A DNA stretch of 64,000 nt, taken from Naegleria gruberi (lineage: Eukaryota). Below, one piece after another: positions 4,803 through 49,443 of this stretch. Where the stretch lies: assembly GCA_000004985.1 (NCBI GenBank), contig GG738887.1; one strand, 5' to 3'. Each line of letters opens with the position of its first letter. Position 1 is the stretch's first letter. The position numbers and the translations under genes were made by a program. The notes under the pieces were generated by a model. It made no database searches, was not told where the DNA came from, and saw only the letters and a list, made by a program, of their open reading frames with translations.

Positions 4803-4844
4803 TCGAACTGTCATTGATACTTTTGAATACTATTTAAATTTAAT

Positions 4845-6471: not shown

Positions 6472-6526
6472 GGCCATATTTTTAGTAGTTGGTACATCAA
6501 ATAGATATGAAATAAATTCATCAAAA

Positions 6527-8166: not shown

Positions 8167-8391
8167 NNNNNNNNNNNNNNNNNNNNNNNNNNNNNNNNNN
8201 NNNNNNNNNNNNNNNNNNNNNNNNNNNNNNNNNNNNNNNNNNNNNNNNNNNNNNNNNNNNNNNNNNNNNNNNNNNNNNNNNNNNNNNNNNNNNNNNNNNN
8301 NNNNNNNNNNNNNNNNNNNNNNNNNNNNNNNNNNNNNNNNNNNNNNNNNNNNNNNNNNNNNNNNNNNNNNNNNNNNNNNNNNNNNNNNNNN
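8167..8391. other. Assembly gap (225 N).
   Basis: N-run in the sequence. Confidence 0.95.
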
Positions 8392-8879
8392 TTTATATCA
8401 TCTCTCAATAATGGTACTGTTAAAACAATTGGAATAACTTTTGTAATAATGGCATCTGACAATAATTTTTGTGATTTCCACATGACAACACTGTATGATT
8501 CATTGATTAATTATGAATTATTCTTTGTAAAACATCAGGCTGTGGCAAATGTGGTTTTGTCCTGTCAAAAGACAAATGGAACTAATTTATTTGAGGAGAG
8601 AGCTGACATTTCACATTTATACTTTCAAAAGTTGGTATTCTATATGATTGTAATGAAGAGTTGCTCACCCATGTCCTTATCATTGATTCAAAGTCAATGG
8701 TCATCTGTAGGATTTTTTATTCAGTCATTTACAGAAAAGTCCAGTTGTTTAAACGAAACTCAACCTTCTATATTTGGAAATGTACTAATTGACAGCTCCC
8801 ACATTTCAAATTCTGTAATATTTTTCAAATACTCTAATCTGATTAGGTTGAATTATGTTTCCATCATGGAGATTGTGCA

Positions 8880-12087: not shown

Positions 12088-14340
12088 TTATAATTTCATT
12101 TCAAAAGGAGAGGTTGTTGGATAGGCTACTCCAATATTATTAGGAGTGGTTCTCGAGTTGTATAATAAAATATTCATTTCTTCCCTGCTTGAGAGAAGAA
12201 GTGACTTGATTTCTTCCAGCTCTTGCCTGATAAAGCCAGATTGTCTTTGGTGTTCCTCATTTATGTGTGCAGAGGCTGTTGCAGCAGAACCTTTGTATTT
12301 GGAGGAGAACGTCTCTTTGAATCGCTGGTATTTTTGATTGGATTGATAATTTTTTTCATCAAGATATCTAGTATCAGGAATGTAAGGTTTAAAGTTGATT
12401 TTTTCCTTGATGCTTGGCCTTTCAGTTTCGGTTGACTTTGCGATGAACAATGGTTTGGAAGATGCCTCTGTTTGTGTTTTTGATGAATAACTGGTAGTAG
12501 AGTTGGAGGAAGTTGGGGGTGTTCTTGAAATATTGGATGGTGGTGGAATGTTTGATCTTGGAAATGATGAAAAGGAAGAAAGAGGTCGTTGAGGAAAAGC
12601 TTGAGCATATGGATTTCTAAAGTACGCAAGAGGTGGTGGATAATAAGGAACAAAGTTGGGAGAGTAAAAGTTACAATTACAATGATCACAACACAAGTTG
12701 CTGTGAGCTTGTGGAGGAATATTTCCATTATTGGTGCCCTGATAATTGGTGTTGAAAACTTGGGAATGGTAAGCTGTTTGAGTTGCATATGTTCTCGAAT
12801 CTTTTGTGAGATCATCAGTCCCAATAGATATACTCTGGACATCCTTTGGCAGAGGAGGTTTTTCTCTCTCAATAGTAATTATTCTATTCGATTCCCTATT
12901 ATCTTTGGAAGGAAGATCCAATTCAGTTTCGTGAACAATTTCTATTTTTCTTTCTGTTCTAATTGGAATCTCGATAACTCTTTCCATATTTCGTTCAACT
13001 ATTGGTTCCGATATCATCTGCTCTGCTTTCTTAATGATAGGTTTTGGCTCTTTTTCAGGAATTATTGTCTCTTTCGAGATCTCTTTTTGTTTAGGCAATG
13101 GCTCTTCCTCAACTTGTTTTGAGCTTGTTGTTGGAGATGGTGTTCTTGAAGCAGGTATAACAGTCTCTGCGTTTTGTGGCTTTTGCAAAGATACGACTTT
13201 AACTGGTTCCTTTTCCACTTGCTTTTGAACTGCAACTTGTTCTGATTTCTTCGGTTCTGGCTTTTTAATTGGTTTTTCTGGTTCAGGTTTCTTAATAGGC
13301 TCTGCGGCTGGTTTTGGTTTTGAGGTAGTTGGAATGGTTATTGGTTTTTGTGGTTCCTTCTTTGGAGGAGGCTTCACCTCCTCTTCTTCATCATCAAAGT
13401 CATCGAAACTGTCATTGCTGTTATCTAAAAAGTTATCTTCAAACGATTCATTATCATCAAAATCACTGAATTCATCCTCGTCCTTCTTGTGTGTATGGGA
13501 GGGTTTGTGGTGATGATCCTCATCGTCCTCAATCTCCTCTTCAAAATCATCAAATGAACTTTCCTGTGTAGAGTTGTGACCATTATCGTTTTCTTCAATT
13601 ATTTCCTCATCTCCAAAATCTGAAAAGTCATCCTCACTAAAATTTTCTTCCTCACTCATTACAAAATCCTCTTGAACAACTCGAGCAGGTTCTCTGTAGA
13701 GTGGTTTTGGTTTTACTGGCTCTGGTTTTTTAATTGGTTGTTGAGCTACAGCTGGTGACTTAGCATGTGTGCCAACGGGATTTGGAGAGGGTGTCTTCTT
13801 GGGCTGTTCTTTGACTGGTGGTTGCTTTTTCACCACAACTACAGAAGGGGAAGGATCTTCTCCTCCCTCCTCATCTGAAAAATCAGAAAACTCATCAAGT
13901 GTCTTTACATTAAACGAATCATTCTCACTGGATGAAGCATACTCGGTCTCTATAACTTGTTTCTTATTTACATTTGTTGGCTTAGTGTTTTTTTGATGAT
14001 TATTATTTGAAATTGTCGGTTTGTTAGTAACAACTGGTTTCGGAAGTTCGTCCTCATCCTCATCATAATTTAATTTTACAGATTTTTGTGATCGTTGAGA
14101 GCTAGAAAGAGTTGGTGAAGGATTGGTTGGAGTAGGTGTTCGTGAAGCAATTCCAAACATTGAATTTACTTTCTGAAACATGTTTCCGAAGTTTGATGTT
14201 GAAGAGCCGTGAGAGGCATGCGATCCATTCGAAGACGAAGAATGTGATCGTCTCATCATTGCATACGGATCATTTCCAATAATCGAACCAGATGAGTAGG
14301 CATCAAATGAGGCTGCAACTGGTTGAGGCTTTTTTTTCAT
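12088..14340 (-). CDS. Acidic, Pro/Lys/Glu-rich low-complexity protein (750 aa).
   Basis: Long ORF with KPEPxKP and PIKKPEP repeats, D/E/S-rich acidic blocks (DDFDDEEEE) and a Cys-rich C-terminus (CCDHCNCN). Antisense ORFs in the same region are composition artefacts. Confidence 0.45.
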   Translation of the reverse strand: MKKKPQPVAASFDAYSSGSIIGNDPYAMMRRSHSSSSNGSHASHGSSTSNFGNMFQKVNSMFGIASRTPTPTNPSPTLSSSQRSQKSVKLNYDEDEDELPKPVVTNKPTISNNNHQKNTKPTNVNKKQVIETEYASSSENDSFNVKTLDEFSDFSDEEGGEDPSPSVVVVKKQPPVKEQPKKTPSPNPVGTHAKSPAVAQQPIKKPEPVKPKPLYREPARVVQEDFVMSEEENFSEDDFSDFGDEEIIEENDNGHNSTQESSFDDFEEEIEDDEDHHHKPSHTHKKDEDEFSDFDDNESFEDNFLDNSNDSFDDFDDEEEEVKPPPKKEPQKPITIPTTSKPKPAAEPIKKPEPEKPIKKPEPKKSEQVAVQKQVEKEPVKVVSLQKPQNAETVIPASRTPSPTTSSKQVEEEPLPKQKEISKETIIPEKEPKPIIKKAEQMISEPIVERNMERVIEIPIRTERKIEIVHETELDLPSKDNRESNRIITIEREKPPLPKDVQSISIGTDDLTKDSRTYATQTAYHSQVFNTNYQGTNNGNIPPQAHSNLCCDHCNCNFYSPNFVPYYPPPLAYFRNPYAQAFPQRPLSSFSSFPRSNIPPPSNISRTPPTSSNSTTSYSSKTQTEASSKPLFIAKSTETERPSIKEKINFKPYIPDTRYLDEKNYQSNQKYQRFKETFSSKYKGSAATASAHINEEHQRQSGFIRQELEEIKSLLLSSREEMNILLYNSRTTPNNIGVAYPTTSPFEMKL

Positions 14341-32322: not shown

Positions 32323-35300
32323 ATGAAAGTGGTACTACTTGCTATTTTGTTGTGTATTGTTATGTCTGCCAAGTTCATTGACACACAAAGTCTTCTTCTC
32401 TACAATATCACAACAATAGCAGGAGGTGGTTCTGTTGTGGGCGATGGTTTACTTGCTACTAATGCTCAATTAGCAATCCCTGCAGGCGTTGCAATTAGCT
32501 CTATTGGTGAAATAATAATTGCTGACTCCAATAATAATAGAATTCGTAAAATAAGTACAAATGGCTACATTTCAACGATAGCAGGAACAGGAAGTGCATC
32601 ATTTGGTGGTGATGGTGGACTGGCCATTAATGCACAATTAAATAGTCCTTCTGCTGTTTCTATTAGCTCAAATGGTGATATGTATATTTCGGATACGGGC
32701 AATCAAAGAATTAGAAAAATCAGTACCAATGGATATATCTCAACAATTGCAGGAAGTGGAACTGGAGGATACAGTGGAGATGGCGGATTGGCCACAAGTG
32801 CTCAATTATATTATCCCAAGGGAGTAGCTATCAGTCCAAGCAATGAAATTTATATAGCTGATACCTATAACCATAGAATTCGTAAAGTAAACACAAATGG
32901 ATATATCTCAACTGTAGCAGGAAGTGGAACTGGAGGCTACGGTGGAGATGGTGGATTGGCCACAAGTGCTCAGGTAAACTATCCATTTAGCGTGTCAATT
33001 AGTTCTACTGGTGAAATTTATATTGCTGATTATTACAATCAAAGAATTCGAAAAGTTACAACATATGGTTTTATCTCGACTGTGGCAGGAAGTGGAACTG
33101 CTGGATACAGTGGAGATGGTGGATTGGCCACAAGTGCTCAATTATATTATCCGCTTGGTGTGTCAATTAGTTCTGCTGGTGAAATTTATATTGCTGATTA
33201 TTACAATCATAGAATTCGAAAAGTTACGACATCTGGGTACATTTCTACAATTGCAGGAACTACCTATGGTTTCAGTGGAGATGGTGGATTGGCCACAAGT
33301 GCTCAGTTGTACTATCCCAATGGCGTTTCAACAGGCTCCAATGGTGAAATATTTATAGCTGACACATACAATTATAGAATTCGTAAAATTAATACCTCTG
33401 GTTACATTTCTACAATTGCAGGAACATCAAGCTTTGGAAACAACATACCTGCTACCGGCGCCAACATAGCACCAACTGGCTCCCCTACTCTTAACAATGG
33501 TAAAATTGTATTTGCAGACACCTCTGGCCAAGTGAGGCAAGTTGACCTTACTACTAATATTATTTCTACCCTAGGTGGAACTGTTGGATCTACAACAATA
33601 GTACAGGCATTCTATAATCCAACATGCGCAAAGTATTACAAGACAGATTTATATATTCTCTACTCTAACTACTATTTAGACAAGGTCACCTCAGTTGCCA
33701 GTAAGGTTGCAGGTACTGGTACTTTAAATGGATACGGTGGAGATGGTAACCTTGCAACAAGTGCAAGATTGAATTATCCTTATGGTACTGCATTTAGCTC
33801 AAATGGAGATATGTATATTGCAGATACAAACAATAATCGAATTCGTAAAGTTACAACATCTGGATATATCTCAACTGTAGCAGGAAGTGGAACTGGGGGA
33901 TACAGTGGAGATGGTGGATTGGCCACAAGTGCACAATTAAATTATCCAAGATCAGTTGCAATTAGCTCAAGTGGAGAGATTTATATTGCTGATTTCAATA
34001 ACCACAGAATTCGTAAAATTAACATCTCTGGATATATCTCAACAATAGCAGGTACTGGAAGTGTAGGATACAGTGGAGATGGTGGATTGGCCACAAATGC
34101 ACAATTATATTATCCCCAAACAGTTGCAGTCAGCTCAAGTGGTGAAATTTATATTGCTGATGCCTATAACCATAGAATTCGTAAAATTAACACCTCTGGA
34201 TATATCTCAACAATAGCAGGTACTGGAAGTGTAGGATACAGTGGAGATGGCGGATTGGCCACAAGTGCTCAATTATATTATCCATTTAGTGTGGCAATTA
34301 GTTCAGTGGGTGAAATTTATATCGCTGATACCTATAACCATAGAATTCGTAAAATTAATACCTCTGGTTACATTTCCACAATTTCAGGAACTGGAAGTGG
34401 AGGATATAGTGGAGATGGCGGATTGGCCACAAGTGCACAATTAAATTATCCATTTAGTGTGGCAGTTAGTTCAGTTGGTGAAATTTATATAGTTGACACC
34501 AATAACTATAGAATTCGTAAAATTAATACCTCTGGTTACATTTCCACAATTGCAGGAACTGGAACTGGAGGATATAATGGAGATAGTATTTTGGCCACAA
34601 GTGCACAATTAAATTATCCTTATGGACTCACAATAAGTTCAACTAGTGAAATTATTGTTGCTGATTATTACAATCACAGAATTCGTAAAATTAACACCTC
34701 TGGTTACATTTCAACAATTGCTGGCGGTTTTGGTGATGGAGATATGGCCACCACAAGTTTCATTTCAGCTTATTCATTCGAGTTCACTTTAAATGGAGAA
34801 ATTATTATAGCTGATTCAAATAATCACAGAATTCGTAAAATTACAACATTAGGATATATTTCCACAATTTCAGGAACTGGAACTGCTGGATATAATGGAG
34901 ATGAAATTTTGGCAACAAACTCTCAATTGAATAATCCTAACGGAATTGCACTAAGTTCCAATAGTGAAATTTATATAGCTGATACCAATAACCATAGAAT
35001 TCGTAAAGTCAATGCATCTGGTTACATTTCAACAATTGCAGGAACTGGAACTGGAGGATATAATGGAGATGGTGTTTTGGCCACAAGTGCACAATTAAAT
35101 TATCCTAATGGAATTGCAATTCAAGAAAATGGTGAAATACTAATTGCTGACAATAATAATCATAGAATTCGTAAAATACGCACAAATGGCTATATTTCCA
35201 CAATTGCTGGAAGTGGAATTGGTGGATTTACTGATAATACTGTAGCAACAAGTGCTCAATTAGAAAATCCCTTGGGGGTTGCAATCGGTTCAAACAAAGA

Positions 35301-38300
35301 GATTTTTCTTACTGATTCGACCAATAAGAGAATTAGAAAACTTATCCCTTGGTGCTCAGAAAATGGCATTCTAATTAATGGAACTTGTGAATATCAATGT
35401 TTTGGAGAAACTAATAAGAACTCAACTGTTTGCTCTGGAAGAGGAAACTGTATTGGGAATGATCAGTGTAATTGCACCACTCCTCAATACTTCGGTTCAA
35501 AATGCAACCAATTTTATTGTTATGGACTATTGAACGCAATGTCAAATGTTTGTTCGTCCCAAGGTAGCTGTAATTCTCCTAATAATTGTACATGCTTTAA
35601 AGGGCATTATGGAGAAACTTGTCAATATTTTTACTGTAACTCTATTCCATTCAATTCCAGTGCTGCTTGTTTAGGTAGAGGTTCTTGTATCTCATATAAT
35701 AATTGCACATGTCAACAAGATTATGCAGGCAATGATTGTCAATATTTTTATTGTGGTAATCGTCTGAATAATGATGGTACAGTGTGCTCTGCACATGGAA
35801 ACTGTATATCTCCTCATAATTGCTCTTGCGACAGTGGTTTTTATGGAAGCAATTGTGAACAATTCGATTGTTATGGCATTAATAATTTGAATGCATCAGT
35901 TTGTTCCAGAAATGGTTATTGCTCCTCTCCAAATAATTGCAAATGTGATCTTGGTTATTATGGAAATAGCTGTGAAATGTATAACTGTTATGATATTCCA
36001 AAAACTGACCCAAGTGTTTGTTCAGGTCAAGGCCTTTGTTCTTCATATAATAACTGCACTTGTCAACAAAATTATTCAGGAGTTAATTGCGAAAATTTCC
36101 ATTGTTATGGAATATCAAAAATAGAGTCTACAGTGTGCTCATCACATGGAACATGCTTAGCGTTGAATAATTGTTCTTGCATTGATGAATATTTTGGAAA
36201 TAATTGTGACCAATTTAAGTGTTATGGTGTTAACTTTATGAACAATTCAGTTTGTTCAGGAAGAGGCCAATGTATTTCGCCAAACTATTGTAAATGTGAT
36301 CTTGGTTATTATGGAAATAATTGTGAAATGTATGATTGTTATGGGTTGTCAAAAAATAATACCAATGTATGCTCAGGTCACGGTACGTGTATTTCATTGA
36401 ATAACTGTACTTGCAGAGATGGATATTATGATTCCAAATGTGGTTCATTTAACTGTGCTGGAGAAAAATTTATAGGCCAAAACCTTTGCCAAAATAATGG
36501 CTCTTGCACTGGTCCTGGTAACTGTGAATGCCCTATTCAGTATGGAGGTGCTAGATGTGAATATTTCAAATGTTATTCATTTACATCCAATGATCCTCAA
36601 GTATGTGGAGGTCATGGAACTTGTTATAATTATAACCATTGTACTTGCTCTCAAAATTGGTTTGGAAAAGATTGTTCAGTCACCACTTGTTTTAGTACAC
36701 CTTCTAACTCTAGCTCTGTATGTGGTGGAAGAGGTAATTGTACTGATTATAACCAATGCAGTTGCAACATTGGATATAGAGGTAATGAATGTGAACATAC
36801 TGTTTGTTATGATAAGATTGAAAGTGATAGTTCTGTATGCTCTGGAAAAGGTTTATGTCTATCACCAAATAATTGCACCTGTGAAACAGGTTTTGTTGGA
36901 AGTGAGTGTCAATACCATGAAGTATATTTAAATACGTCATCCGCCATTATTTTTTCTTTCCATAACAGTCTAATGAAGTTATTACCAAATGAGAGTGAAC
37001 AATTTTCGTGTTCTGACATTTTTGAAGAATCAGAAATCGACAAATTTGGAGAAAGTTCCTCTTTCATCTGCCAATGGAGAAGAAAATCATTACAAATTCA
37101 TCTTGGTTTTGATTATGCTATTGGTCATAACTCTATCATTCAAACTAAGTTTAACTTTTCATTGAGAGTTTATACTTTATCCAATGAAGCTTCATCTCCA
37201 ACTTGTTCTTTTGGATATTCATTAACTGAAACTTCTCCCTTATTAGATATAGTGATACGTTTGAATTGTGATGACAATTTTCATGGCTTCAAGAAATTGA
37301 GAACTGATTGGTCGTGTGATCAATGCACAAACAGCGTTTCATCATTATTGAACAACTATTCAAATAGATCATCCATTTATATCCCTATTTCATATATGAA
37401 TAGTTTGACTCCTATTCAAGGTTATAAGATTATTAACTTACAAACTTCTTTTTCATCAGAGATTTATTCTACAAAATCCATCAACAAGGAAGTTAAGGTT
37501 CAATCCTATGCAAAATCATTACCTCCAAGTTATTACTGGCTAAGTGATAATTATGCTGGAAAGACATATTCATGTATTGCTCATAATTGCATTTTAGAAA
37601 CTTCTTTAAATAGTTTAAACTCTTCTATTTCTTATTCATTCTCTGGATTTTTCAGTTTATTGAATAATGACCTAAACTCTAAACAAATGGTGAGGATGAT
37701 TAATGATTATTCTGGTGGAGTTTTAGATAGCGAATTTAATTCAAATATGCAAGTATTTGGTGTTCAGCTAAAAACATATGTTTACTTACCATTAAGCATT
37801 GACTCTTTTAAATATTCAACATTTACGAACTTGGATTTTGTTATGGCAGGTGTCAATAGAACATATTCGATCAACTCAGATAGTCTGGTGACAGTTACAT
37901 TGGTAACTGATGATCCATACATCTCAAAATATACTCTAAGCGATTATTTGGAATACACTTGGAAATGCTACATGGTTTCTTCTTCAAATAGATCTCTTCT
38001 TTTGACAGATAATTTATGTTCTTCAATTGAAAACACTAGATCTTATCTTATGTTAGACATTACGAAAATGTCTTTAAAAGAAGGTTCATATGTAATATCT
38101 GCTTCGATTTCCTCTACAAAATACTTTGTCACAACCGTTTACAACTATGCAGGTTTTATTGAATTGTTGGATATTTCCAACGAATCCCCTAAAATAACCA
38201 CAGACTACTTGCCTGCAATCACACCTTCTCATAATAATATTTATTTAAGAAGTGTGGTAAACTCTTCCTCAGAGGTTTCGTTTGCTTGGAACCTCAAACA

Positions 38301-41021
38301 TGGTTATTTGAATGTTGATGAAAACATAGAAGATTTTCTCCAAAGAAACACAATTTACACAAACATCATTGACAATAACGTTGAAATCATTTTGAACGTT
38401 GATAACAAGTACATCATTCCAGGAGAATCGTATGAATTCGAATTATCAACTAAAAATTCAAAAGGTTATGCTAATGTCTCCATTTCAACAAGAGTTGACT
38501 TCTCCCCACGATTGTCATGCGATGTCGAGAATTTGAAGAATGATGCTAATATTACCAGTTTTGAATCATTGATATCCATTACTTGTGTAAAATTACCATA
38601 CGAAAGTATTTCGAGTTTTGTGATGGAATTTTATTCACAAAATGAAAGATTGGGAGTAATATCTAATACTCCAAAGAAATCCTTAGTTACTAGAGTTCCT
38701 TATTATGCACAAGATGGAATAATTACTTTGGTTGTAAAACTTCAAAACTTGTATGGATCTATTGGAGTATTTAGAAAGAATATCAAGATTGGATTACCTA
38801 ATTATTTGTCAAATGACAATACGATTATTTCCCGAGTTACTTACTCCCTAAACCAATTCCAAAATATTAAGAATTCTCAACCAGTCAAGATGGAAGTTTC
38901 AAATGAAATCAATACTTTACTTTCTCTATTAATTCAAAATGAAACTCTCTCGAAATTCTCTGAGAATGTTGTAAAGCAATTGAATTCAGCTCAATTAACT
39001 TCATTCAATACCATGCTAAGAGAAATGATCATATTAACGAAGAGTTTACAAGATATTACATACAGGGTTGATGAAAGAGTCATTCAATTGACTTTGCCCG
39101 TTGTCAGCAAGATTTGTAATATTTTAAAAATAACTCTGGACACTTCATCATTATCTTCATTCGCTCTTGATGTAGAAAAATGGTTGGATTGGATTTATTC
39201 TGGAATGGACAAAGCGCTTAATTATTATCAAACCAATATTTACAAAGACTTACTTGATAACTATCATTTGCAAGAAATAGAGTCATTACAAAACATTCTT
39301 TCAACTATTTATCAAAGTAATTTCGAGCAGCAATACAAGTTCTATAAGTATAATTTACAATACATCAAGCTGACTGGAAGCAATACTGATAATTCAAGCC
39401 TGGTGGAAAATATTGAATATTCTAATTTATTGAATGCCAAGGCTATCTCTCTCTCAATTTCCAACTTTAAGGTGGACATGAAATTACCTAATGATTTTAC
39501 GAACCAAATTTCTTTGCAATCTAAATCTAAACTATTCTATTCTATCAGATCATTTAGTAACACTGGAGCTACAAATCTTTTACAAGAAAAACCAGTGGTT
39601 GATCTATCTCTGTATGACGCCTCTTACAATATTATTAACGTCAAAAATATCAATCCACCAATTGTCTTCAAATTCCAAGGATTAATTACCAATAATAAGA
39701 CTGGCATCAATACTACTTGTATATATTATGACACAACTCTTTCAAAATGGTCTACTATTGGGTTGGAAACATACACCACAATAACTAAAAGAACAGACGA
39801 TTTTATTTACTTCGATATGGAATGTCGTTCCAGTCACTTATCAGTCTTTTCAGTTCAAGAAGTTGATTATAACTCTCCTATCACACCTATTACCGCTATA
39901 TCATCTAATAGATCTAGTAGAGATGAATCATCAACCATTTTAACAATTATATTATCAACAGTTTTACCGATTAGCCTTTTAATACTTGTTTTTATCATTA
40001 TTTTGGTTGTTTTCATGATCCTTTTATTTAGAAATAAGCAAAAGAAAGCAAATGAACTAGCAAATACAACCAATATTGAACTATCAATATCAGACTTCCC
40101 ATCTGAAGGAAGTATGTTTATTCAACCACTTACAAGCATTTCTTCCAATGGAACTGCTTCTGAATCCTTCAATCCTCTCTCTAGATATTCTAATCTGGTA
40201 AGAATTGGACAAGGATCTTTTGGATCTGTGTTTAAAGCATTTGATAACAAGTCCGATTCAGTCAAGGCAATTAAGGTTATTCGATATAATTCAATGGAAG
40301 AATTGAACAATTTTATGAAAGAAGGAACTCAATTAATGAATGTTAAACATCCTTACATTTTGAGAGTTAATGAATTCTTTGTGAGTAAGGATCAATTACT
40401 TTGTATAGATATGGACTTTTATGAACTAGGAGATTTGGTCCGATTGACCAATGTTGATTTTGACTGCTCTGAAAAATTAATTAAGCAAATAATTTTCCAA
40501 ATGTGTCAAGCTCTTGATTACATTCATAGCAATATGAAAATAATTCACAGAGACATCAAACCATCAAATATATTTGTAAAAAGTTTGGAAAATGATAACA
40601 TTCATATCATTGTTGCAGATTTTGGGTTAGCTAAAGCAAATACTACATCTACAAACAATTCTTATGCAGGTACTCCTATTTTTATGGTAAGTTTCTTTAA
40701 TTCTTCATTAATTATTAACAAGTTTAGTCTCCTGAACTTGGCTTAGGTGGAAAATATTATTATAACACGGATATTTATAGTTTAGGTGTTACAATTTATC
40801 AAATAATGACAAAAGACACATTTACATCAATAAGTCAACTTTACTTGGGCAAAGATCAAAATGAAGTATCCAAAATATTAAACAAAAAGTTATAAGAGGA
40901 TCAATACTCCCAAAGACTTACTGATTTAGTGTTATCAATGCTAACAAGAGATAATTCATCTAGACCTCAAGCTCAAGATATTTTGCAAGATTCTTATTTT
41001 GATGATTTAAGAATGAAACGA
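32323..41021 (+). CDS. Giant receptor Ser/Thr kinase of roughly 2,900 aa. Order: signal peptide, about 16 NHL-type beta-propeller blades, 13 EGF-like modules, about 1000 aa of unassigned ectodomain, a single TM, and a C-terminal protein kinase. There is an intron at 40687..40727. The 3' end has an in-frame TAA at 40893, which may be bridged by a 27-nt intron at 40889..40915.
   Basis: Signal peptide MKVVLLAILLCIVMSA. A 56-aa unit …GYISTIAGTG…GYSGDGGLATSAQLNYP…GEIYIADxxNHRIRKINTS… repeats about 16 times. 13 modules follow the pattern C-x-G-x-G-x-C-x4-5-C-x-C-x2-G-Y-x-G-x2-C-E-x-F-x-C-Y-G. The TM is ILTIILSTVLPISLLILVFIIILVVFMILLF. Kinase motifs are IGQGSFGSV, AIKVI, HRDIKPSNIFV, ADFGLAK, then GTPIFM|SPELG across a 41-nt gtaagt…tttag intron, and a C-terminal …DLVLSMLTRDNSSRPQAQDIL. 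Confidence 0.8.
32420..35340 (+). repeat. Tandem coding repeats of period 168 nt (56 aa, NHL-like blades) inside the giant receptor gene. Several copies are more than 90% identical at nucleotide level.
   Basis: Visible in the sequence: for example 33990..34150 and 34160..34320 are nearly identical (catagaattcgtaaaattaacacctctggatatatctcaacaatagcaggtactggaagtgtaggatacagtggagatgg…). Alternate-frame ORFs in the track (33011..33358, 34241..34444) are by-products of this repetition. Confidence 0.8.
35350..36920 (+). repeat. Array of 13 EGF-like (tenascin/integrin-beta-type) modules of about 32–40 aa within the giant receptor.
   Basis: CSGRGNCIGNDQCNC, CSSQGSCNSPNNCTC, CLGRGSCISYNNCTC and similar. 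Each is followed by GYYGxxCExYxCYG linkers. Confidence 0.75.
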
Positions 41022-41198: not shown

Positions 41199-43475
41199 TT
41201 ACTCAAACTCAACCTCTTCTTCATTCAAGCTGATGTGAGCTTGGCGGTTTTCCCACAATAAACTAACTTCAATGTCTGAAAATTTACCATTTCTAGACTC
41301 TGAGTGCACTTGGAATGTATGCAGACCTTTTGGAATTTTTCTTCTTGTGCCAGTAAATACATAAAGTCCACTACTCTTGATATCCAGTTCATCACAAACC
41401 AATTCTAAATATGAATTGTACTTGAGCATATCATTGTGAATCATTCTTAATGCTATGAGGGTTTCACATTTTCTATCAACAGTGAGATTGAATTGTTGAG
41501 TGAGAGTTTTACATCCTGAGTCATCCTCATTGACGAAATCTTTATCATCGTGTTTGAGAATTTGTTTAAAGATTGGGAACGATGAAGATTTGTGAATGGA
41601 TCTCAAAATGGTTTGATCGAATCTAAATCCGAATGCATTATCTTCCTTAAATAAATGATCAATATTTACAATATGTCCAATAGCCATAGTACCAAAGTGA
41701 TTGATAACATCACCTAGTTCCATCCAGAAAACACCATCATCTTGCTCCTCTTTTTCTTTTTGTTTTCTTGATTTCCTATCACTGGCTGTATCATTGACAG
41801 GCAAAAGTCCTGTATTTCTACATAATTGTTGAATCAGATTTGCTTGTTCAGTAACTCTTTCATTGAGGTCTCTTTTGGTTTGGGCTATCATTTCCTTGGA
41901 TACGTCAGACCAAGCTCCTGTCCATTCAGTATTTCCCCCTATAAATTTGGATAAATAATTGAAAATCAAAAAACTATACTTACATGGATTTCTCAATCTA
42001 ACTAATCTATTACCCTTGTACTCTAAGCAATCCAAAAGTGCATAATAGTGACCTCCAACAATGCCATCCTCGTTAGTAAACTCATCTCCTAAACCAGAGT
42101 TATCATCAGACCCAAAACCAATAGCATTCCCATTATTGAATCCGTTTACAATACAACACCAAATCTCATCAAAAGACAAACCTCCACCAACAATACCCTC
42201 TTCAACTACCTCTTCTTCTTGATCTTCTTCGTCTTGTTCGTCATCCTCGTAGCCTTCTTCTTCATATTCTTCTCCTTCCTCCTCATGCTCTTCAATGCAA
42301 GAAACATGATTTCTCAAATCTTCAAATTGTGGGAGGCAGCCAGTAAAAAGATAAATACCCAAAGTACCATCTCCACCCTCTACCTTGGCATAATTTCCAA
42401 ATAATTTGGCGATTGCCTTTTCAACAATCGTAGGCCACAATTCATTTTTGTCTTTAGAATGAACAACCATAATATCACCATCTGTTGTGATTGGTACAAA
42501 ATCGTCAACAGTAACATATTTCCATTCATTTCTCCAAAAGAATCTCAATGTATATTGTCCCATTGCAACATTGGCCTTGACAAATAGATGGGCTATTAAA
42601 TGTGGAAATCTTGCAATGGCTGCCAATGAACTCAATAACCAACAATCTCCAAGACTTCCTTGTCTTATATCTCTGGCATCGATGCCATCAATAATAAGTT
42701 GTGGAATTTCACATAGCTCTGAAGCTCTCTTGAACCCTCCATAATTATTTTCCTTAATTTTCTTTTTACTGAATCCAAGAGAGGTTTCATTTGGTGGGAA
42801 ATCAGGATCAACAAATGGTTCAAGTAAAGGTTGTTGTGTCTTTTGTTGAGCATAGAATTGTTCATAATTTTGGAGATATAAATATTGTGATTGATCAATG
42901 ACTTGTGAAGCTTGTGGAAAACATCCATAAGATTGTTGTTGATTACAGACAGGAGGTTGAACATGGCTGGCGTATGGTTGTTGGACCTGTGGTTGAGATT
43001 GACTTGGTACTCCATAACTTTGTGTTGGTTGACTATTTTGATATGGTTGTTGAGGTTGTGGAGGATAGGATGGTTGACTATGTTGATATGGTTGTTGTGG
43101 CACATTTCCGTATGGTTGTCCATAAGAAGGAGAGTATTGATTAGCATTGTTTTGATATATTCCTTGTGTCATGACTGGTTGTTGCTGTTGTTGATTTGGA
43201 TAATATGATCCAGCAACTTGATTAGAAGAAGGATAAGCATATGAATTCATGTGAGTTTGATGTTGTTGATTTCCTCCTCCATACGGATCGTACATGGATT
43301 GTTGAGGATTGATCACTGGTTGCTGTGGTTGTTGATGTTGAATATTAGCATTGCCATAATATTGTGGTTGTTGATTTTGATATTGGTTTGATTGATAATT
43401 GTTTGATTGTTGTTGCTGTTGTTGATTGTAATACTCGTTATTATTGGCAGGAGAATAGTTGTAAGGATTGTACAT
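41199..43475 (-). CDS. Calpain-like cysteine protease with a Q/N/Y/P-rich (prion-like) N-terminal region and an acidic insert. It contains a 45-nt in-frame intron at 41939..41983 that the ORF track reads through.
   Basis: Catalytic-triad landmarks are QGSLGDCWLLSSLAAIA (Cys), GGHYYALLD (His) and RNPW|G NTEWTGAWSD (Asn). The last motif is restored exactly when gtaagtatag…atttatag (45 nt) is spliced out. N-terminal 190 aa: QQQQQQSNNYQSNQYQNQQPQYY…. Acidic insert EEHEEEGEEYEEEGYEDDEQDEEDQEEE. Confidence 0.8.
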   Translation of the reverse strand: MYNPYNYSPANNNEYYNQQQQQQSNNYQSNQYQNQQPQYYGNANIQHQQPQQPVINPQQSMYDPYGGGNQQHQTHMNSYAYPSSNQVAGSYYPNQQQQQPVMTQGIYQNNANQYSPSYGQPYGNVPQQPYQHSQPSYPPQPQQPYQNSQPTQSYGVPSQSQPQVQQPYASHVQPPVCNQQQSYGCFPQASQVIDQSQYLYLQNYEQFYAQQKTQQPLLEPFVDPDFPPNETSLGFSKKKIKENNYGGFKRASELCEIPQLIIDGIDARDIRQGSLGDCWLLSSLAAIARFPHLIAHLFVKANVAMGQYTLRFFWRNEWKYVTVDDFVPITTDGDIMVVHSKDKNELWPTIVEKAIAKLFGNYAKVEGGDGTLGIYLFTGCLPQFEDLRNHVSCIEEHEEEGEEYEEEGYEDDEQDEEDQEEEVVEEGIVGGGLSFDEIWCCIVNGFNNGNAIGFGSDDNSGLGDEFTNEDGIVGGHYYALLDCLEYKGNRLVRLRNPCKYSFLIFNYLSKFIGGNTEWTGAWSDVSKEMIAQTKRDLNERVTEQANLIQQLCRNTGLLPVNDTASDRKSRKQKEKEEQDDGVFWMELGDVINHFGTMAIGHIVNIDHLFKEDNAFGFRFDQTILRSIHKSSSFPIFKQILKHDDKDFVNEDDSGCKTLTQQFNLTVDRKCETLIALRMIHNDMLKYNSYLELVCDELDIKSSGLYVFTGTRRKIPKGLHTFQVHSESRNGKFSDIEVSLLWENRQAHISLNEEEVEFE

Positions 43476-44557
43476 TTTTTTGATTATTATTTAGTTTTAA
43501 AAACTTTCTCATGTACACACAACCAATTATTTAACCCTTTTTTCATCATGACTTGTGATTTCTCATTCATGGATAACTTGTTTTTTTCTTTTTTTTTAAA
43601 AATTAAAATTATCAAATAAGGCGCCAAACACTTTCTTAATCAAAAATCAGCCTTTATTGTTGGCTTTGCAAGAAGACAGAATGGTTTTGATACAACACAT
43701 ACATTGAGGATTTTTCTTTGAGGTCAACTCTTCGCAATTTTTCATTCTCCCTTCACCTGTCAATGGTAGCAAATTGATTTTTTCAATCCAACCTATCAAT
43801 CAAACCGGCACAACTTTGGGTAAGAAAAGTGAAAAAAACAACACAAAAAAATCGAGATTAAATTGTTGGATTTTCTTGCATTCGATATTGACCACTGTGA
43901 GTCACGTTTCCAGCTGTGCCAACAATTTTCCATCTCTCTTGAGGAAAGCAACAATCAAAAACTTTGTTTTCCAACACTTTGTACTTGTACTGCTATTACT
44001 ACTTTCTAGTTCGTTGAGTATTTCCTCAAATAGTACTGTTGCCAATAGACATTGCTCTTTCAAATTCTATAAGAAGCAACATTGTAGGTTTTATCTTGTT
44101 TTTTATAAGAAGAAAATTAAGAATTCCCACAAACTAACAACAACAATACTGCAATCATATTATATTGCAAATTCCCTAATTCTTGTTGATATTTACTTCC
44201 CTCTCCAAACAAACAAAATTTCTCCCGAATAACACACCCATTCGACTAATTTGTCCAACTCTACAAACTCACAACATTGAACACAATTTGGTAATATTTG
44301 TGTGTGTGCTGTTTCTCATCCTCGTCGTCTCCTCACTCCACACGAAAAAAAACAATACTTTTCGGGTGATATTTCTCCTCTGATTTTAATTATTTAATTG
44401 CAATTATTTATATATATTCAACTTGTGTTATCCAATCTACCTAATCTAATACTAACACTGCCACTGCTATACTACTACTTTGTATCATCCTATTTATTTT
44501 CTTCATCTTCATTACTCAATTTATTTATTTAAAAACATCACAAATCTTCATTTGAAA

Positions 44558-47287
44558 ATGTCTGCCAAAATACAAGAACGTCTGGCTTTCTTCCAGAGCA
44601 ATATTAATAGTAATAACAACAATACAACGGCTCCATTTAAGAGTTCGGTAACATCTGTTGGAAGTATTAAGCAACAACAACAGCAAGCATCTTCATTGAG
44701 TGTACAGCCAAAGCCTAGAAGTCAAACATTATTTGTCAAGCCTACTAGCACTACTTTAAATACTTCCTCTACTACTAATACGAGTGCAACAAGCAATTCT
44801 CTTAGTAAGAATAATATTACTTCCAATCCTACTATTGTTGTAAAACCTCCAACCAAGACTGTAACAATCTCCTCGACTCCTTCTGTTGTCACTACTAACA
44901 ATACTAGCACAAGGGTAAACACAGCATTATCATCCACCAATAATTCAAATAGTGATTCATCGACAAAACCAATGAGTGCAACACCTTCCGAGAAGAAACC
45001 ATCTGGAATTGCAGCAAAGTTAGCTCTCTTCAGCAATGGTAATAACAGTAATAGTAGCAATACCACACAACCAACAGTTTCTCCAAGAGCATCACCAAGA
45101 CTTTCCATTCATCTTTCCAGCTCACCATTCTTGAATGGAAGTTTGAATAATAATACGACAGCAACAACAAGTAATACTGCATCTTCCAATGCAGTACAGG
45201 CCTCTCCAAGAGCTTCACCAAGATTGTCAATTGCATTATCATCTTCACCATTTTTCAACATGGAAAAGGAAAATTCGACCAATCCTTCACCATCTACAAC
45301 ATCTTCGACCACAACAACTCCACCAACCACAAGTTCTACCACTCCAAACACAACAACAACAACTACATCGACAGCAAGTGGTAGCACCAGTACTAGTTCT
45401 TTGAAGGATAGAAAGAATTTATTCGAGCAACAACCACCGACAACTCAACCACCTGTATTTAAAACTAGAAGTGCAACTGTTATGCCATCTTCTAGACCTT
45501 CAACCACACCTTCCTTAGTCACTAGTGGAACAGGTAGTGGTGTTAAAACATCACCAGTTAGTCCTACCACAACTGCTCCGATCACTTCATCCAATGTGAC
45601 TGCAGTTCCAAATACCACCTCTTCAACAACCTCAACAACTCCGTCCACCTCTTCAATAAGTACTCCTTCGACAACAGGAAATAGTATTAAGGATAGGTTC
45701 TCAATGTTTGAGAAGAAAACAGAGGAAAAGCCACCTGTTGTTGGTTCTGGAGCAAAGTGGACAAAACCAAAGACTCAAGAAACATCGACTCCAACAACTA
45801 TTGGTGCAAATAAGAGTGTTTCTCCTCAAACTAAACCAGTTGAAGAAAAGGTGACAATTCCTCCTAAGGAAGAAAATAAGACTGAACCATCAGCTGAACC
45901 ACCAAAAGTAGCAGTGCAAGAAACTACAGTTAAAACAAAGGCTCCTGAAACAATTAAGGAAAATCCAAAAGATGATATTAAGCCAAAATCTCCAACATCT
46001 GAATTGAAACCTGAGGTCACTAAACCAGTTACTTCTCCAAGAGCAACAGAAAAAGCTGTTGAACAAAAACCTGAGCCAAAGACTGTCTCATCAACAACCG
46101 CTACTGCTTCAACTGAAAAGAAGGTAGATGTCAAACCAACTGAACCAGTTTCAAAACCAACACCAGCTACTACATCAGCTTCAGGATCCACTTCTACAAC
46201 AGGAGGTTCTCTTAAATCAAGGTTTGCCATGTTTGAAAAGAAGGAAGAACCACAACCGGTTGTTACTGCCACCAAACCAAAAGTTTCACTCTTCAAGAAG
46301 GAAACCGAAACTAGTGCTCCAACAACTGAACAAAAGGCTGAAGTTGCCAAACCTGTTGTTTCACCAACCACTGAAAAGAAGGTTGAAATTAAGGTTGTAC
46401 CAAAGCCAACAGAAGCTAATGAAGAAAAGAAGGTTGAAGTGGAAGTTGAACCAAAGTCAACTGAAACAACATCTGCTCCACCAACCACTGCTTCAACTGA
46501 AAAGAAGGTTGAGTTGAAACCAACTGAACCTGTTTCAAAACCTTCCACAACTCCAAGCACTGCCACATCAGGATCCGCTTCTACAACAGGAGGTCTTAAA
46601 TCCAAGTTTGCCATGTTTGAAAAGAAGGAACCAGCAACTCCTACTCCAAAGAAGGAAGAACCAACAACTGGCTCAAATTCTGTGAAAAACAAATTTGCCA
46701 TGTTTGAAAAGAAGGATGAACCAACTCCAGAACAACCAAAACCTAAATCAGCAGCAGGATCTGTTGCTGACAGATTCAAACCTAAAGAATCTAGTCCAGA
46801 GGTTATTACAACTCCACCTCCTTCAGAAACTAAATCCTCAAGCGTCCAAGACAGGCTAGTCAAGTTTAAGCAACCTACTGCTTCAGAAACATCTCCAACC
46901 TCTGCTGAAGCATCAGGTACTCCTAAACCATTGACCATTCAAGAAAAATTGGCCAAACTGAAACAAAATTCTGCTGGAACTCCACCACCATTCGGTTTTA
47001 TGGGTGGTCCACCTCCATCTTTTAAGAGTTCACCAAGCTCTGGTGGTGGTAATGACACTCCTTTAATTAATGTCTTTTCACCAACACCTTCCACACCAAA
47101 GGAAAATGTTCCAGATGCAGCCTCTCATGAGAGACAACACCATGGTACCTTATCTTCAGATACTGCCCTTAATAGAGTGAAAAAGGTACCTACCAACAGA
47201 AAGAAGACAGTCATTAAACACAATATTGACAAGGTAGAAAGTACCAGAAAGAGTATTGTTGCTCTCGATGTCGAGGAAGATGAATAA
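44558..47287 (+). CDS. Long intrinsically disordered S/T/P-rich protein (about 910 aa) with repeated (K/R)x(R/K)FAMFEKK(E/D)EP motifs. No signal peptide.
   Basis: It starts MSAKIQERLAFFQSN. Six motif copies: KDRKNLFEQQ, KDRFSMFEKKTEEKP, KSRFAMFEKKEEP, KSKFAMFEKKEPA, KNKFAMFEKKDEP and QEKLAKLKQNS. Between them are runs of TTTTPP, SSTT and KP(T/V)E. Minus-strand ORFs (44722..46938) are composition artefacts. Confidence 0.5.
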   Translation: MSAKIQERLAFFQSNINSNNNNTTAPFKSSVTSVGSIKQQQQQASSLSVQPKPRSQTLFVKPTSTTLNTSSTTNTSATSNSLSKNNITSNPTIVVKPPTKTVTISSTPSVVTTNNTSTRVNTALSSTNNSNSDSSTKPMSATPSEKKPSGIAAKLALFSNGNNSNSSNTTQPTVSPRASPRLSIHLSSSPFLNGSLNNNTTATTSNTASSNAVQASPRASPRLSIALSSSPFFNMEKENSTNPSPSTTSSTTTTPPTTSSTTPNTTTTTTSTASGSTSTSSLKDRKNLFEQQPPTTQPPVFKTRSATVMPSSRPSTTPSLVTSGTGSGVKTSPVSPTTTAPITSSNVTAVPNTTSSTTSTTPSTSSISTPSTTGNSIKDRFSMFEKKTEEKPPVVGSGAKWTKPKTQETSTPTTIGANKSVSPQTKPVEEKVTIPPKEENKTEPSAEPPKVAVQETTVKTKAPETIKENPKDDIKPKSPTSELKPEVTKPVTSPRATEKAVEQKPEPKTVSSTTATASTEKKVDVKPTEPVSKPTPATTSASGSTSTTGGSLKSRFAMFEKKEEPQPVVTATKPKVSLFKKETETSAPTTEQKAEVAKPVVSPTTEKKVEIKVVPKPTEANEEKKVEVEVEPKSTETTSAPPTTASTEKKVELKPTEPVSKPSTTPSTATSGSASTTGGLKSKFAMFEKKEPATPTPKKEEPTTGSNSVKNKFAMFEKKDEPTPEQPKPKSAAGSVADRFKPKESSPEVITTPPPSETKSSSVQDRLVKFKQPTASETSPTSAEASGTPKPLTIQEKLAKLKQNSAGTPPPFGFMGGPPPSFKSSPSSGGGNDTPLINVFSPTPSTPKENVPDAASHERQHHGTLSSDTALNRVKKVPTNRKKTVIKHNIDKVESTRKSIVALDVEEDE

Positions 47288-47325
47288 TTAACAAATAACA
47301 ATTATTAGGACAATTTTGAAAATGT

Positions 47326-47739
47326 TTATTCTTCTTCGTCTTCCCATTCGTCAACATCTTCTCCACCTTCTTCGTCATAATACTCATCATCTTCACCACC
47401 TTCCCATTCATCCTCATCTTCGTTTTCTTCTTCTTTTGGAGGTACTATTGAAACTGTTTTCGTTCCATTGACTTGATCAAGTATTTGGGCATCATGATTA
47501 ATCAGATCCTTATTGAGCAGACCATCTTGATCATTCACATAAACCTTTGATTCGTCTCCAATGGTACCATAATTGTATTTTCCACCTCCACTCTTCTTAT
47601 CATTTCTCAAAATACGTCCACTCTTAATGAATTTTCCACATGAACGATCACGTCCATTGACAGCAATAATGTGATGCCTCTTATTTTGCTTTCCTAATTC
47701 CTTTGGTACTGGTAATTTTTCGTCCATTTTCTCAGTCAA
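47326..47739 (-). CDS. Small hypothetical protein (137 aa) with a strongly acidic, W/E/D-rich C-terminal tail.
   Basis: ORF plus positional context: it diverges from the PP2C gene across a 348-nt promoter region. The tail is EENEDEDEWEGGEDDEYYDEEGGEDVDEWEDEEE. Confidence 0.35.
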   Translation of the reverse strand: MTEKMDEKLPVPKELGKQNKRHHIIAVNGRDRSCGKFIKSGRILRNDKKSGGGKYNYGTIGDESKVYVNDQDGLLNKDLINHDAQILDQVNGTKTVSIVPPKEEENEDEDEWEGGEDDEYYDEEGGEDVDEWEDEEE

Positions 47740-48087
47740 CTAATTGGTTTGTCTCTTTGCTTTCTGGATATCTTTTTGAGTTTTATTTCGATACTAGCAA
47801 CCAAGTTTACTGCCTCTAAAATAGAAATCGAATAGTTTTGGTTTTTTTATTTTAATGTGAGTTTACCAAACGTGTAAACTTTCCTTAATGGAAATCACCC
47901 AAAATAATGGTATCTTTTGAATTGGTTCATTACGATCTGTATACTGAGTTCATACGAAATTAACCATTATCAAATTTAAATACAAAACAATGTATTACAT
48001 TGCACAAGCAAAATTTACGGTTACGAACTTTGGGCGCCAAAAATAAAAATTCAGAGACAAATAAAATACCTTTAGAAGCTAAACAAT

Positions 48088-49270
48088 ATGGGACAAATTT
48101 TGGATAAACCAGTCACTGATAAGACCACTCACGTGGGGAAGAATGGATATGCAATGTTCGGATGTAGTAGTATGCAAGGATTTCGTTTATCTATGGAAGA
48201 TCGACACAACTATTTTACAGAATTGCCTCGAGTTGCTCCTCCGAAAGTACAACAAGCAATTGAGAGGGAAGATGTACATGTTTCATTCTTTGCAGTGTTT
48301 GATGGTCACTCAGGTTTGTATTAATATCATGATTGTGATGATGAGTTAACTTTGGAATCAAAATAATAATTAAGGTGATACATGTGCCGAGTTTTTGTCA
48401 AAGAATTTATTTAAACAAGTTTTACTTGAGGAAGTTGAGAATAATCAAAACATGACTGCTTGGAGTTTATTGAATAATGATCAAAATATTGAACAAGGAT
48501 TTTTAAAAACCGACACAGAATTTGATAAATCATGTGCTGGAGTTGATGACAGTGGTTCAACAGCTACCACACTTACTGTAAAAAGAATTGGAAAAGATAA
48601 ATTGGAAGTCATTTGTGCAAATGCTGGTGATTCCAGAACTGTATTACATTATAAGGGAAAGACAGAGCCAATGAGCTATGACCACAAACCCCAAGTCAAC
48701 AGTGAAAAGGCCAGAATTTCAAAGGCAAAATCGTATGTGGAATTTGGTAGAGTAAACGGTACTTTGGCTGTTTCAAGAGGTTTTGGAGATTTGAGTTATA
48801 AGAAATACGACAAGTTGCCACAGGAAGAACAAGCTGTCATTCCACTTCCTGAAGTTAAGAGAGTTGTTGTTGATTTGAATGATAATAGTGAATATAACTT
48901 TGCTGTTTTGGCATGTGACGGTGTCTGGGATGTCATGTCAAATGCTGATGCAACAAACTTCGTCTTGCAACGATTGATTGAACAAAAGAATGGCACATAC
49001 AAACGTTTAACCTACCCAGGTGACCCACCTCAACAACCATCTTCTGCTCATGGATCTGAACATTCTGGATTTGATGCACCAGAAAATCAATCACCAACAC
49101 CTGGAAAATTTGATTTAGGATCAATTTGTGAGGATGTACTAGATCATTGTGTTAGGGGACTTGACAGCAAAGACAATGTTTCTGTAATTATAGTACTTTT
49201 CCAAAGAGATGATGACTACGTTCCTCCTCAAGCAATCAATCTACCACCAAACCATTTTGCAAATAAATAA
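48088..49270 (+). CDS. PP2C (PPM-family) Ser/Thr phosphatase, PPM1A/B-like, with an N-terminal MGxxLDKP motif. Two exons, with a 61-nt intron at 48314..48374.
   Basis: MGQILDKPVTDK…GCSSMQGFRLSMEDRH…FFAVFDGHSG|GDTCAEF (gtttgt…attaag intron) …DDSGSTA…ICANAGDSR…YDHKP…VNGTLAVSRGFGD…LACDGVWDVMSN are the canonical PP2C motifs. The N-terminus parallels mammalian PPM1A/B (MGAFLDKPK). Confidence 0.85.
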
Positions 49271-49443
49271 AACTATTCCACAAGCATGCTTGAAGTCAAC
49301 CAGTAAAGCATCAAGCTCATTGAGAATCTTTGAATCAAGGAGATCAATTTCCTTTCAATACCTCCTCTGAAAGGAGTAATAGTTATTCAAACTTTAATTA
49401 CAAGAATGCAGTGCGCTCATTTTCATAATCAACTCTGAAAAAA

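Follow-up and report, generated by a model that had tools for sequence, protein, structure and literature searches.

The 64,000-nt window analysed here, a stretch of contig GG738887.1 (assembly GCA_000004985.1) of nuclear DNA of Naegleria gruberi strain NEG-M with a GC content of ~33% and short introns, contains on its plus strand an intron-free open reading frame (ORF) at positions 44558 to 47287, and it is this ORF and the nine related short peptides along its product that are the subject of the present report. The peptides resemble the SFM, a published helical motif that binds filamentous actin (F-actin), and the reading that we put forward, as a leading possibility, is that they are actin-binding sites of this type. 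The product of the ORF is 909 amino acids (aa) long, has a mass of ~96 kDa and is basic (isoelectric point 9.8); it is rich in Thr (16.7%), Ser (15.8%), Pro (11.5%) and Lys (10.4%) as well as in Glu, contains no Cys or Tyr, and has a single Trp (aa 398) that lies outside all of the motif sites.

A sequence-only reading of this DNA had reckoned with the region being non-coding low-complexity DNA, in which case the ORF would be a by-product of base composition. Some properties of the region fit such an origin, namely a strong strand skew (GC skew of -0.2 to -0.3) and a 370-codon antisense ORF rich in Gly, Val, Ser and Phe, with one antisense frame giving a positive codon-usage score (0.275). The origin was not borne out, however: the probability that 909 codons would stay open by chance, given the local base composition, was 5e-24, the region gave ORFs of up to 172 codons when shuffled 300 times, the best codon-usage score was that of the sense frame (0.48), GC content at third codon positions (0.24) was similar to that of the neighbouring genes, and no GTAAGT splice donor was found inside the ORF. 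For these reasons the ORF is a real coding gene. Differences among the motif copies, synonymous versus nonsynonymous, may likewise point to selection on the peptide, and the UniProt numbering of the neighbours skips one accession at this position, so that we regard a non-coding origin as very improbable; the antisense ORF is most likely a by-product of the low-complexity sense sequence. In the window, UniProt accessions follow position: D2VPM5 and D2VPM6 are succeeded by a gap, then by D2VPM8 and further on by D2VPN5. D2VPM7 is unassigned at the gap, and the plus-strand gene count is compatible with EFC41151 being this ORF. Judged by accession order and gene count, the ORF is probably D2VPM7/EFC41151.1, annotated as a predicted protein. 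The flanking genes have consecutive GenBank numbers, and an argument from this that the ORF is unannotated was withdrawn because those numbers run per strand and the UniProt accessions by position.

A strict motif, K-x-[RK]-F-[AS]-M-F-E-K-K, was present in four copies starting at nt 45689, 46214, 46598 and 46685, and five looser relatives shared the pattern hydrophobic-x-x-[RK]-hydrophobic-x-x-[FL]-[EQK], giving a total of nine sites. All nine fall into a single register, [S/T]-Phi-[K/Q]-x-[R/K]-Phi-x-x-[F/L]-[E/Q/K], where Phi is a hydrophobic residue; the positions of this alignment are referred to below as P0 to P9 (Table 1). Six copies of FAMFEKK had been claimed in the sequence-only reading; four of these are the strict copies, and those placed at ~45420 (LKDRKNLFE) and ~46940 (IQEKLAKLK) are degenerate relatives. 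The N-terminal variant that it described was recovered as IQERLAFFQ at aa 5-13, and two relatives, VQDRLVKFK (46844) and IAAKLALFS (45008), had been overlooked. The pattern [IVL][KQA]x[KR][FL][ASVK]x[FL][EKQS] occurred 8 times in the protein, as against a maximum of 1 occurrence, reached in 25 cases, among 20,000 shuffles, and the broader pattern [KRQ]x[KR][FLIM][ASVTKG]x[FLW][EQK] occurred 7 times in the 909-aa ORF, whereas the window's other long ORFs, taken over all six frames, together had it twice. Recurrence of the nine sites far exceeds chance, and their spacing is irregular (29-175 aa).

Table 1. Features of the motif-bearing ORF and of the surrounding window. Scores are those of the position-specific scoring matrix (PSSM) built from published SFMs; percentiles refer to the leave-one-out scores of the published SFMs.
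Feature	Position (nt)	Strand	SFM PSSM (bits)	Percentile	Remarks
Predicted receptor kinase, 2,807 aa, D2VPM5	32323-40746	+			NHL repeats, teneurin-type EGF arrays, C-terminal protein kinase domain
Calpain, 758 aa	41199-43475	-			Protein match, 100% identical to EFC41234.1/D2VPM6
Intron-free motif-bearing ORF, 909 codons + stop	44558..47287	+			ATG at 44558, TAA ending at 47287
Site aa 5-13, IQERLAFFQ	44570..44596	+	9.1	23rd	Gln at P9; AlphaFold helix aa 4-14
Weak site aa 151-159, IAAKLALFS	45008..45034	+	3.9		Below published range
Duplicated peptide SPRASPRLSI[HA]LSSSPF[LF]N, 2 copies	45080-45135, 45203-45258	+			Ser-Pro-rich; unrelated to motif
Site aa 282-290, LKDRKNLFE	45401..45427	+	12.9	66th	Best SFM match; 6/9 identical to XIRP1 VKTFKNLFE
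Strict copy 1, aa 377-385, IKDRFSMFE(KK)	45686..45712	+	10.1	36th	
Titin-PEVK-like K/P/E/V/T-rich spacer, aa 390-679	45725..46594	+			Holds EKKV[DE] repeats and strict copy 2
Antisense ORF, 370 codons	45826-46938	-			Opposite the 909-aa ORF
Segmental duplication, 384-nt period	46103..46630	+			Unit 46103-46246 repeated at 46487-46630; 91% and 83% identity
Strict copy 2, aa 552-560, LKSRFAMFE(KK)	46211..46237	+	8.2	16th	AlphaFold helix
Strict copy 3, aa 680-688, LKSKFAMFE(KK)	46595..46621	+	7.1	7th	
Strict copy 4, aa 709-717, VKNKFAMFE(KK)	46682..46708	+	10.5	41st	5/9 identical to ITPKB VNQKVGMFE
Site aa 763-771, VQDRLVKFK	46844..46870	+	6.9	7th	Lys at P9
Weak site aa 794-802, IQEKLAKLK	46937..46963	+	2.9		Leu at P8, Lys at P9
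Pro/Gly/Phe patch PPPFGFMGGPPPSF...	46982..47047	+			Within the 909-aa ORF
Predicted C-terminal helix, aa 884-897 (IKHNIDKVESTRKS)	47207..47248	+			AlphaFold; basic tail ending in acidic DVEEDE
ORF of 133 aa, NAEGRDRAFT_70919/D2VPM8	47326-47739	-			Protein match
Second long ORF, 750 aa	12088-14340	-			KPEP/KKPEP-rich spacers; disordered-looking by composition; no Pfam match

Strict copies 2 and 3 sit inside a segmental duplication with a 384-nt period, the unit of which encodes EKKV-x-KPTEPVSKP, an S/T-rich stretch and then STTGG(S)LKS[RK]FAMFEKKE, and the core codons of strict copies 2 to 4 are identical (TTT GCC ATG TTT GAA AAG AAG). Both properties favour a different account of the gene, namely that it is a young, lineage-restricted, repeat-expanded ORF without docking function whose motif copies are remnants of internal low-complexity duplication. 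Strict copy 1 speaks against this account, since it differs from copies 2 to 4 by 4 synonymous and 2-3 nonsynonymous codon changes, the latter at variable positions, and has flanks that are essentially unalignable with those of the other copies, yet retains the peptide; because of this retention there appears to be modest but real evidence for selection on the core peptide, and copy 1 reads as older than copies 2 to 4. Amino-acid identity among the copies, all of them internal paralogues, was 70-90% in the core versus 5-40% in the flanks, so that the repeated short motif of the sequence-only reading is seen as conservation of a peptide core without conservation of its flanks, and a helix is predicted on it (see below). 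The young-repeat account also has to contend with five diverged sites, one of them at the extreme N-terminus, that hold the same register, and with the maintenance of a 909-codon ORF in a 33% GC genome; we consider it rather improbable, and return to it with the homologue searches.

Structure prediction by AlphaFold2 from the single sequence gave a mean pLDDT (predicted local distance difference test) score of 33.9 for the whole protein and only two helices, the first of which (aa 4-14) is the N-terminal variant of the motif, while the second covers aa 884-897. Charge-hydropathy and composition proxies also indicated disorder, and the 909-aa protein is predicted to be almost wholly disordered, in keeping with what had been read from the letters. 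When the nine paralogous sites were supplied as an alignment, AlphaFold placed a helix exactly on LKSRFAMFE with pLDDT of 70-90, and in these models the short helix-prone peptides emerge as the only ordered elements of the protein. The spacers are of more than one kind: the N-terminal 375 residues, which are 43% Ser+Thr and 10% Pro, form S/T/N-rich spacers, and aa 390-679 are 52% P+E+V+K, or 69% when Thr is included.

The N-terminal composition had led to the protein being called mucin-like in the sequence-only reading, a description that holds for the S/T/P composition and no further. A secreted or surface mucin-like glycoprotein would account for these 375 residues. A Kyte-Doolittle scan of the 909-aa protein, however, detected no signal peptide, hydrophobic N-terminus or transmembrane-like segment, as the highest 19-residue mean was only 0.64, and the absence of a signal peptide had been noted before. 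The start codon, in an A-rich context, lies 78 nt (26 codons) after an in-frame stop, and no splice donor consensus is near it, which also speaks against a secreted product. Nor did Tandem Repeats Finder detect a tandem array, so that neither the signal peptide nor the S/T/P tandem repeats expected of a secreted mucin are present; we regard a mucin-like glycoprotein as extremely unlikely and take the protein to be cytosolic.

The motif resembles the actin-binding peptides of Lifeact, F-tractin, caldesmon (KSMWEKG) and EPLIN (KMMFEKG). Lifeact and F-tractin bind as amphipathic helices in a hydrophobic pocket to which two successive actin subunits contribute, and both depend on a central Phe (Shatskiy et al., PMC11809415). 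The SFM (V-x-x-L-x-x-x-F-E) was defined in 2026 from human proteins and yeast Abp140; P1 and P8 are indispensable, the affinity is modulated through P4 and P9, Ser/Thr are enriched at P-2 to P0, single motifs bind with dissociation constants (Kd) of 2-12 uM, and motifs arise de novo, with a phylogeny of validated SFMs that dates their origins within animals, Abp140 excepted (Paraschiakos et al., PMC13364712). Repeated SFMs occur in XIRP1 (9 sites), XIRP2 (5 sites), PLEKHG3, neurabin and SORBS1/2 (PMC13364712).

For a quantitative comparison we built a PSSM from 122 unique sequences among the 124 published SFM 9-mers (Supplementary Table 3, PMC13364712) and scored the published set by leave-one-out, whereby 93% of the published SFMs reached a threshold of 7 bits. 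The two weakest of the nine sites, IAAKLALFS and IQEKLAKLK, scored below the published range, and the percentiles of the others are given in Table 1. Six hits of at least 7 bits were found in the 909 aa of this ORF versus 9 in the 12,856 aa of 21 other ORFs of the window (maximum 2 per ORF), an 8.9-fold enrichment (Poisson 5e-5) that was equalled in 0 of 3000 shuffles. On the first-round PSSM of the SFM authors, which we rebuilt and checked against their two SHROOM3 scores (21 and 14.5, both recovered), the sites scored 12.5, 12.5, 11.5, 10, 8.5, 6.5 and 6.5, compared with a published median of 12.5 and a minimum of 4.5.

Position by position, P1 was I, L, L, V, L, I, V, I and I in the nine sites, aliphatic throughout, as in most published SFMs (V 86, I 15, L 12; n = 124; PMC13364712), and P8 was F in eight sites and L in one, the published counts being F 81, L 14, Y 14 and W 7 (PMC13364712). 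Ser or Thr stood at P0 in 6 of the 9 sites. Glu occupied P9 in the four strict copies and in LKDRKNLFE, and the remaining four sites, weaker SFM candidates for this reason, have Q, K, K and S there. A single short helix in a disordered region, the structural setting of the motif, is likewise predicted here, at aa 4-14 and at LKSRFAMFE, in a protein with the low mean pLDDT given above. P4 departs from the consensus, and the departure has precedents: wild-type SHROOM3 carries Lys at P4 and still binds, with a Kd of ~11 uM (PMC13364712), and 22 of the 122 published SFMs have R or K at P4, 13 of these with I/L/V/M/F at P5, including VKSRILQYE, VSSRITAFE, IRQRISSFE and the validated VLTRVKMFE (ZO-1) and VNQKVGMFE (ITPKB). 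Going by these sequences, a basic P4 followed by a hydrophobic P5 can be regarded as a recognised SFM sub-pattern.

Several points weigh against assigning the sites to actin. P4 was R or K in all nine sites rather than the consensus Leu/Ile, and Phe at P5, as in the four strict copies, was found in 0 of 122 published SFMs. Strict copies 2 to 4 are recent duplicates or have been homogenised and do not constitute independent evidence; in the AlphaFold run that used no alignment, the strict copies were not predicted to be helical; and the hydrophobic moment at the sites was moderate (0.28-0.41), with the strict copies not standing out in a ranking by this quantity. A Phi-x3-Phi-x2-Phi spacing is a generic feature of amphipathic helices and is loosely compatible with other helical motifs too. 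The published work is itself a reason for caution: its structural filter, an AlphaFold-Multimer model with actin that reaches an interface score (ipTM) of at least 0.6 with the pose and polarity of ITPKA, accepted 124 of 3,414 modelled sequence hits, and in round 1 59 of 539 (PMC13364712). A sequence match alone is thus a poor predictor, because 3.6-11% of SFM-like hits passed that filter, and most published SFMs are predictions, with 26 of 103 SFM proteins truncation-tested (PMC13364712).

The low pass rate and the generic spacing also favour the view that the protein is a multivalent array of helical docking motifs whose partner is something other than actin, such as a Ca2+-sensing protein of the EF-hand type (calmodulin or centrin), a protein with an MIT domain or a folded protein specific to Naegleria. 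Many helical ligands typically have a Phi1-x3-Phi5-x2-Phi8 arrangement flanked by basic residues, VQDRLVKFK and IQEKLAKLK fit the relaxed MIM1 core [LIV]xx[RK]Lxx[LF][KR], and the caldesmon SFM overlaps a site displaceable by calmodulin (PMC13364712). The strict MIM1 pattern [DE]xxLxxRLxxL[KR], which as a rule sits C-terminally in an ESCRT-III protein, was absent, the relaxed core was confined to the two C-terminal sites, and the protein has no Snf7/ESCRT-III domain, so that MIM1 was rejected; the Sfi1-type centrin repeat, [LF][LF]xxx[FL]xxW[KR] with its invariant Trp, was rejected as well, neither it nor the W1-L4-L8 pattern being present and the sole Trp lying away from the motifs. No IQ motif was found, the net charge around the sites, at +1 to +2, is low compared with that of calmodulin targets, and a Pro ~5-6 residues past P9 restricts the helix to ~13 residues. 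These alternatives, moreover, leave the invariant F-E pair unexplained, unlike the SFM. We judge a partner other than actin to be unlikely, though the strongest competitor to the SFM assignment.

Further motif classes were tried and rejected. A WH2 or WASP-type VCA region, in which LKKV comes after an amphipathic helix and the acidic tail includes a Trp, found no match, as there was no Pfam WH2 hit, the ELM-like WH2 pattern was absent, only a VKKV was present (aa 874) and the DVEEDE end lacks Trp. Pattern tests also rejected IQ, PIP box, APIM, beta2-appendage motif, RVxF, AGC hydrophobic motif, NPF, DPF, FxDxF, clathrin box, CPI motif and FPPPP.

Searches for relatives bear mainly on the young-repeat account introduced above. 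No homologue of the full protein was found by a word-index search or by exhaustive phmmer against 1.84 billion representatives, and none across 5.8 billion clusters, those representatives and metagenomic and viral contigs. A profile of the four strict copies retrieved 19 word-sharing candidates, 0 of them at E <= 10; exact look-ups of the 909-aa product, of eight Met-truncated or alternative ORFs and of the antisense ORFs gave no match in protein collections; and scans of metagenomes for F[AS]MFEKK and for the last 110 aa of the protein gave 600 and 323 pattern matches, respectively, of which 0 were confirmed. Pfam searches with the whole protein and with ten segments gave nothing above cut-off (DUF3519 and DUF5638 were sub-threshold), two motif profiles and the last 154 aa, searched against PDB sequences, returned noise only, and full-text literature searches with motif peptide strings and the inferred accessions found nothing. 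Taken at face value, the missing homologues and the missing Pfam and PDB matches favour a young gene. Their force is reduced, however, because the target sequence itself is absent from all protein collections searched while both flanking genes are present, so that the negative result is weak evidence.

The N. lovaniensis genome offered a positional comparison. The N. lovaniensis calpain orthologue is 65% identical and adjoins a histidine kinase instead, and no motif-bearing ORF was found within 10 kb of it, which again is in favour of the young-repeat account. Synteny (positions 1-10000 of the N. lovaniensis locus compared with window positions 43476-49300) is kept on the side of calpain and the NHL-EGF kinase and breaks exactly at the region upstream of calpain; the N. 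lovaniensis genes there are for a hybrid histidine kinase, a protein of 298 aa, an NAD-binding protein, a membrane protein of 697 aa and a C2 protein, and the window contains none of them.

Some further observations concern the neighbouring genes and other parts of the ORF. The window has no actin gene. Calpain EFC41234.1 seems to retain a 45-nt in-frame intron (GTAAGT...TATAG) at 41939-41983 on the minus strand, which inserts CKYSFLIFNYLSKFIG; the N. lovaniensis orthologue and an N. gruberi paralogue lack the insert and read NPWG, and splicing the intron out restores NPWGNTEW. The second long ORF, at 12088-14340, has acidic Phe clusters (DFSDF, FDDFEEE, DEFSDFDD) that recall endocytic adaptor-binding motifs, and no SFM-like match of at least 7 bits was found in its 750 aa. 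Within the motif-bearing ORF, the Ser-Pro sites of the duplicated peptide could be sites of proline-directed kinases. The heptapeptide PPPFGFM (46982-47002, aa 809-815), which contains FGF, fits the ALG-2 type-2 pattern [P/Phi]-P-x-[P/Phi]-G-[F/W]-large residue, a single match of PPPFGF to this ABM-2 pattern that may be due to chance. The sub-threshold DUF3519 match (20.3 bits against a cut-off of 27.5, E = 7.7e-4) lies at ~46874-46975 on the plus strand (aa ~773-806) and covers IQEKLAKLK.

Weighing these results, we suggest that the sites are SFM-type F-actin-binding helices and that with them the protein binds to the sides of actin filaments or cross-links these, as an elastic, multivalent chain of Xin-like architecture, a reading for which we would claim a little less than an even chance. 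On its sequence, the protein is a candidate new SFM-type member in a lineage without described SFMs. The multivalent docking scaffold proposed in the sequence-only reading suits the predicted disorder, the lack of a signal peptide and the repeated, conserved, helix-prone peptide; it left the partner unnamed, and the SFM match supplies actin as a candidate. On the SFM reading each peptide would fold on binding into an amphipathic helix of ~9-13 residues, lodged in the hydrophobic cleft that separates subdomains 1 and 3 of one actin subunit of the filament and in contact with the D-loop of the following subunit, in the docking mode of Lifeact, F-tractin/ITPKA and other published SFMs. P1 (I/L/V) and P8 (F) would serve as anchors, the P9 Glu would contact actin, and the hydrophobic P5 (F/L) would replace the usual Leu at P4. 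Five to nine weak sites on one flexible chain would provide avidity, and the protein could decorate, bundle or elastically tether actin filaments, like the multi-SFM Xin-repeat proteins. More speculatively, the Ser/Thr at P0 and the Ser of strict copy 1 may permit control by phosphorylation, and EF-hand proteins might compete for the sites, as calmodulin does on the caldesmon SFM.

In a stronger form of the proposal, which we hold to be doubtful, the protein is a multi-copy SFM array that arose independently in Discoba, the first outside opisthokonts, with five to nine weak Lifeact-type helices on a PEVK-like elastic chain that tethers or bundles actin in an amoeba that crawls fast. If that were true, the actin cleft would recruit the motif convergently across the whole eukaryotic tree, and a basic P4 with an aromatic P5 would be a workable, newly tolerated register. 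On the SFM reading as such, the motif would reach a very distant lineage, the protein would provide a natural case of avidity through weak sites on an elastic linker, and ~20-residue peptides of the ORF should decorate F-actin and lose binding on mutation of P1 or P8. Motility and phagocytosis of Naegleria rely on actin and genetic manipulation of the organism is hard, so that candidate actin-binding proteins and probes would be useful there. Should the actin prediction fail, the ORF would be one more lineage-specific low-complexity protein.

The SFM family as a whole is among the closest known systems. Target and family share a nine-residue helical motif in a disordered region, with I/L/V at P1, F at P8, E at P9 and S/T at P0, and the target sites fall within the published range on two PSSMs; the basic P4 and hydrophobic P5 are common to the target, SORBS1/2, IL16, PDZD2, ZO-1, ITPKB and SHROOM3. 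The target differs in lacking Leu at P4 and in having an unprecedented Phe at P5, and whereas the published set is human, the target is heterolobosean and known from its sequence. Two listed SFMs, VRNIKSMWE (CALD1) and LNRLKMMFE (LIMA1), end in a basic residue and M-aromatic-E as does the target [RK]F[AS]MFE; the target differs from caldesmon, LSP1 and EPLIN in having no Caldesmon-family or LIM domain, and there is no similarity beyond the nine residues.

In architecture the target recalls XIRP1 and XIRP2, which likewise carry many SFM-type sites (9 and 5) on one largely disordered chain, described as a repetitive actin-binding motif in PMC13364712, and the XIRP1 site VKTFKNLFE matches LKDRKNLFE of the target at 6 of 9 residues. 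Supplementary Table 3 of PMC13364712 shows only the RW[LI]FE core of the Xin repeat. Searches of the whole protein and of ten segments gave no Pfam Xin match at E <= 10, so that a Xin repeat proper was rejected; the target has neither GDV nor an RWLFE core, its sites lie irregularly 29-175 aa apart on S/T-rich and PEVK-like spacers, and the likeness is not one of homology. A full Xin repeat is longer, with the consensus GDV..[RK]WLFET.P, and occurs in arrays. The spacers themselves invite comparison with the PEVK region of titin, and although the target lacks the 28-residue PPAK repeat and is Thr-rich, the likeness being one of composition and not of homology, its central 290 residues, with 52% P+E+V+K and short EKKVE/KPTEP repeats, fit an extended elastic spacer.

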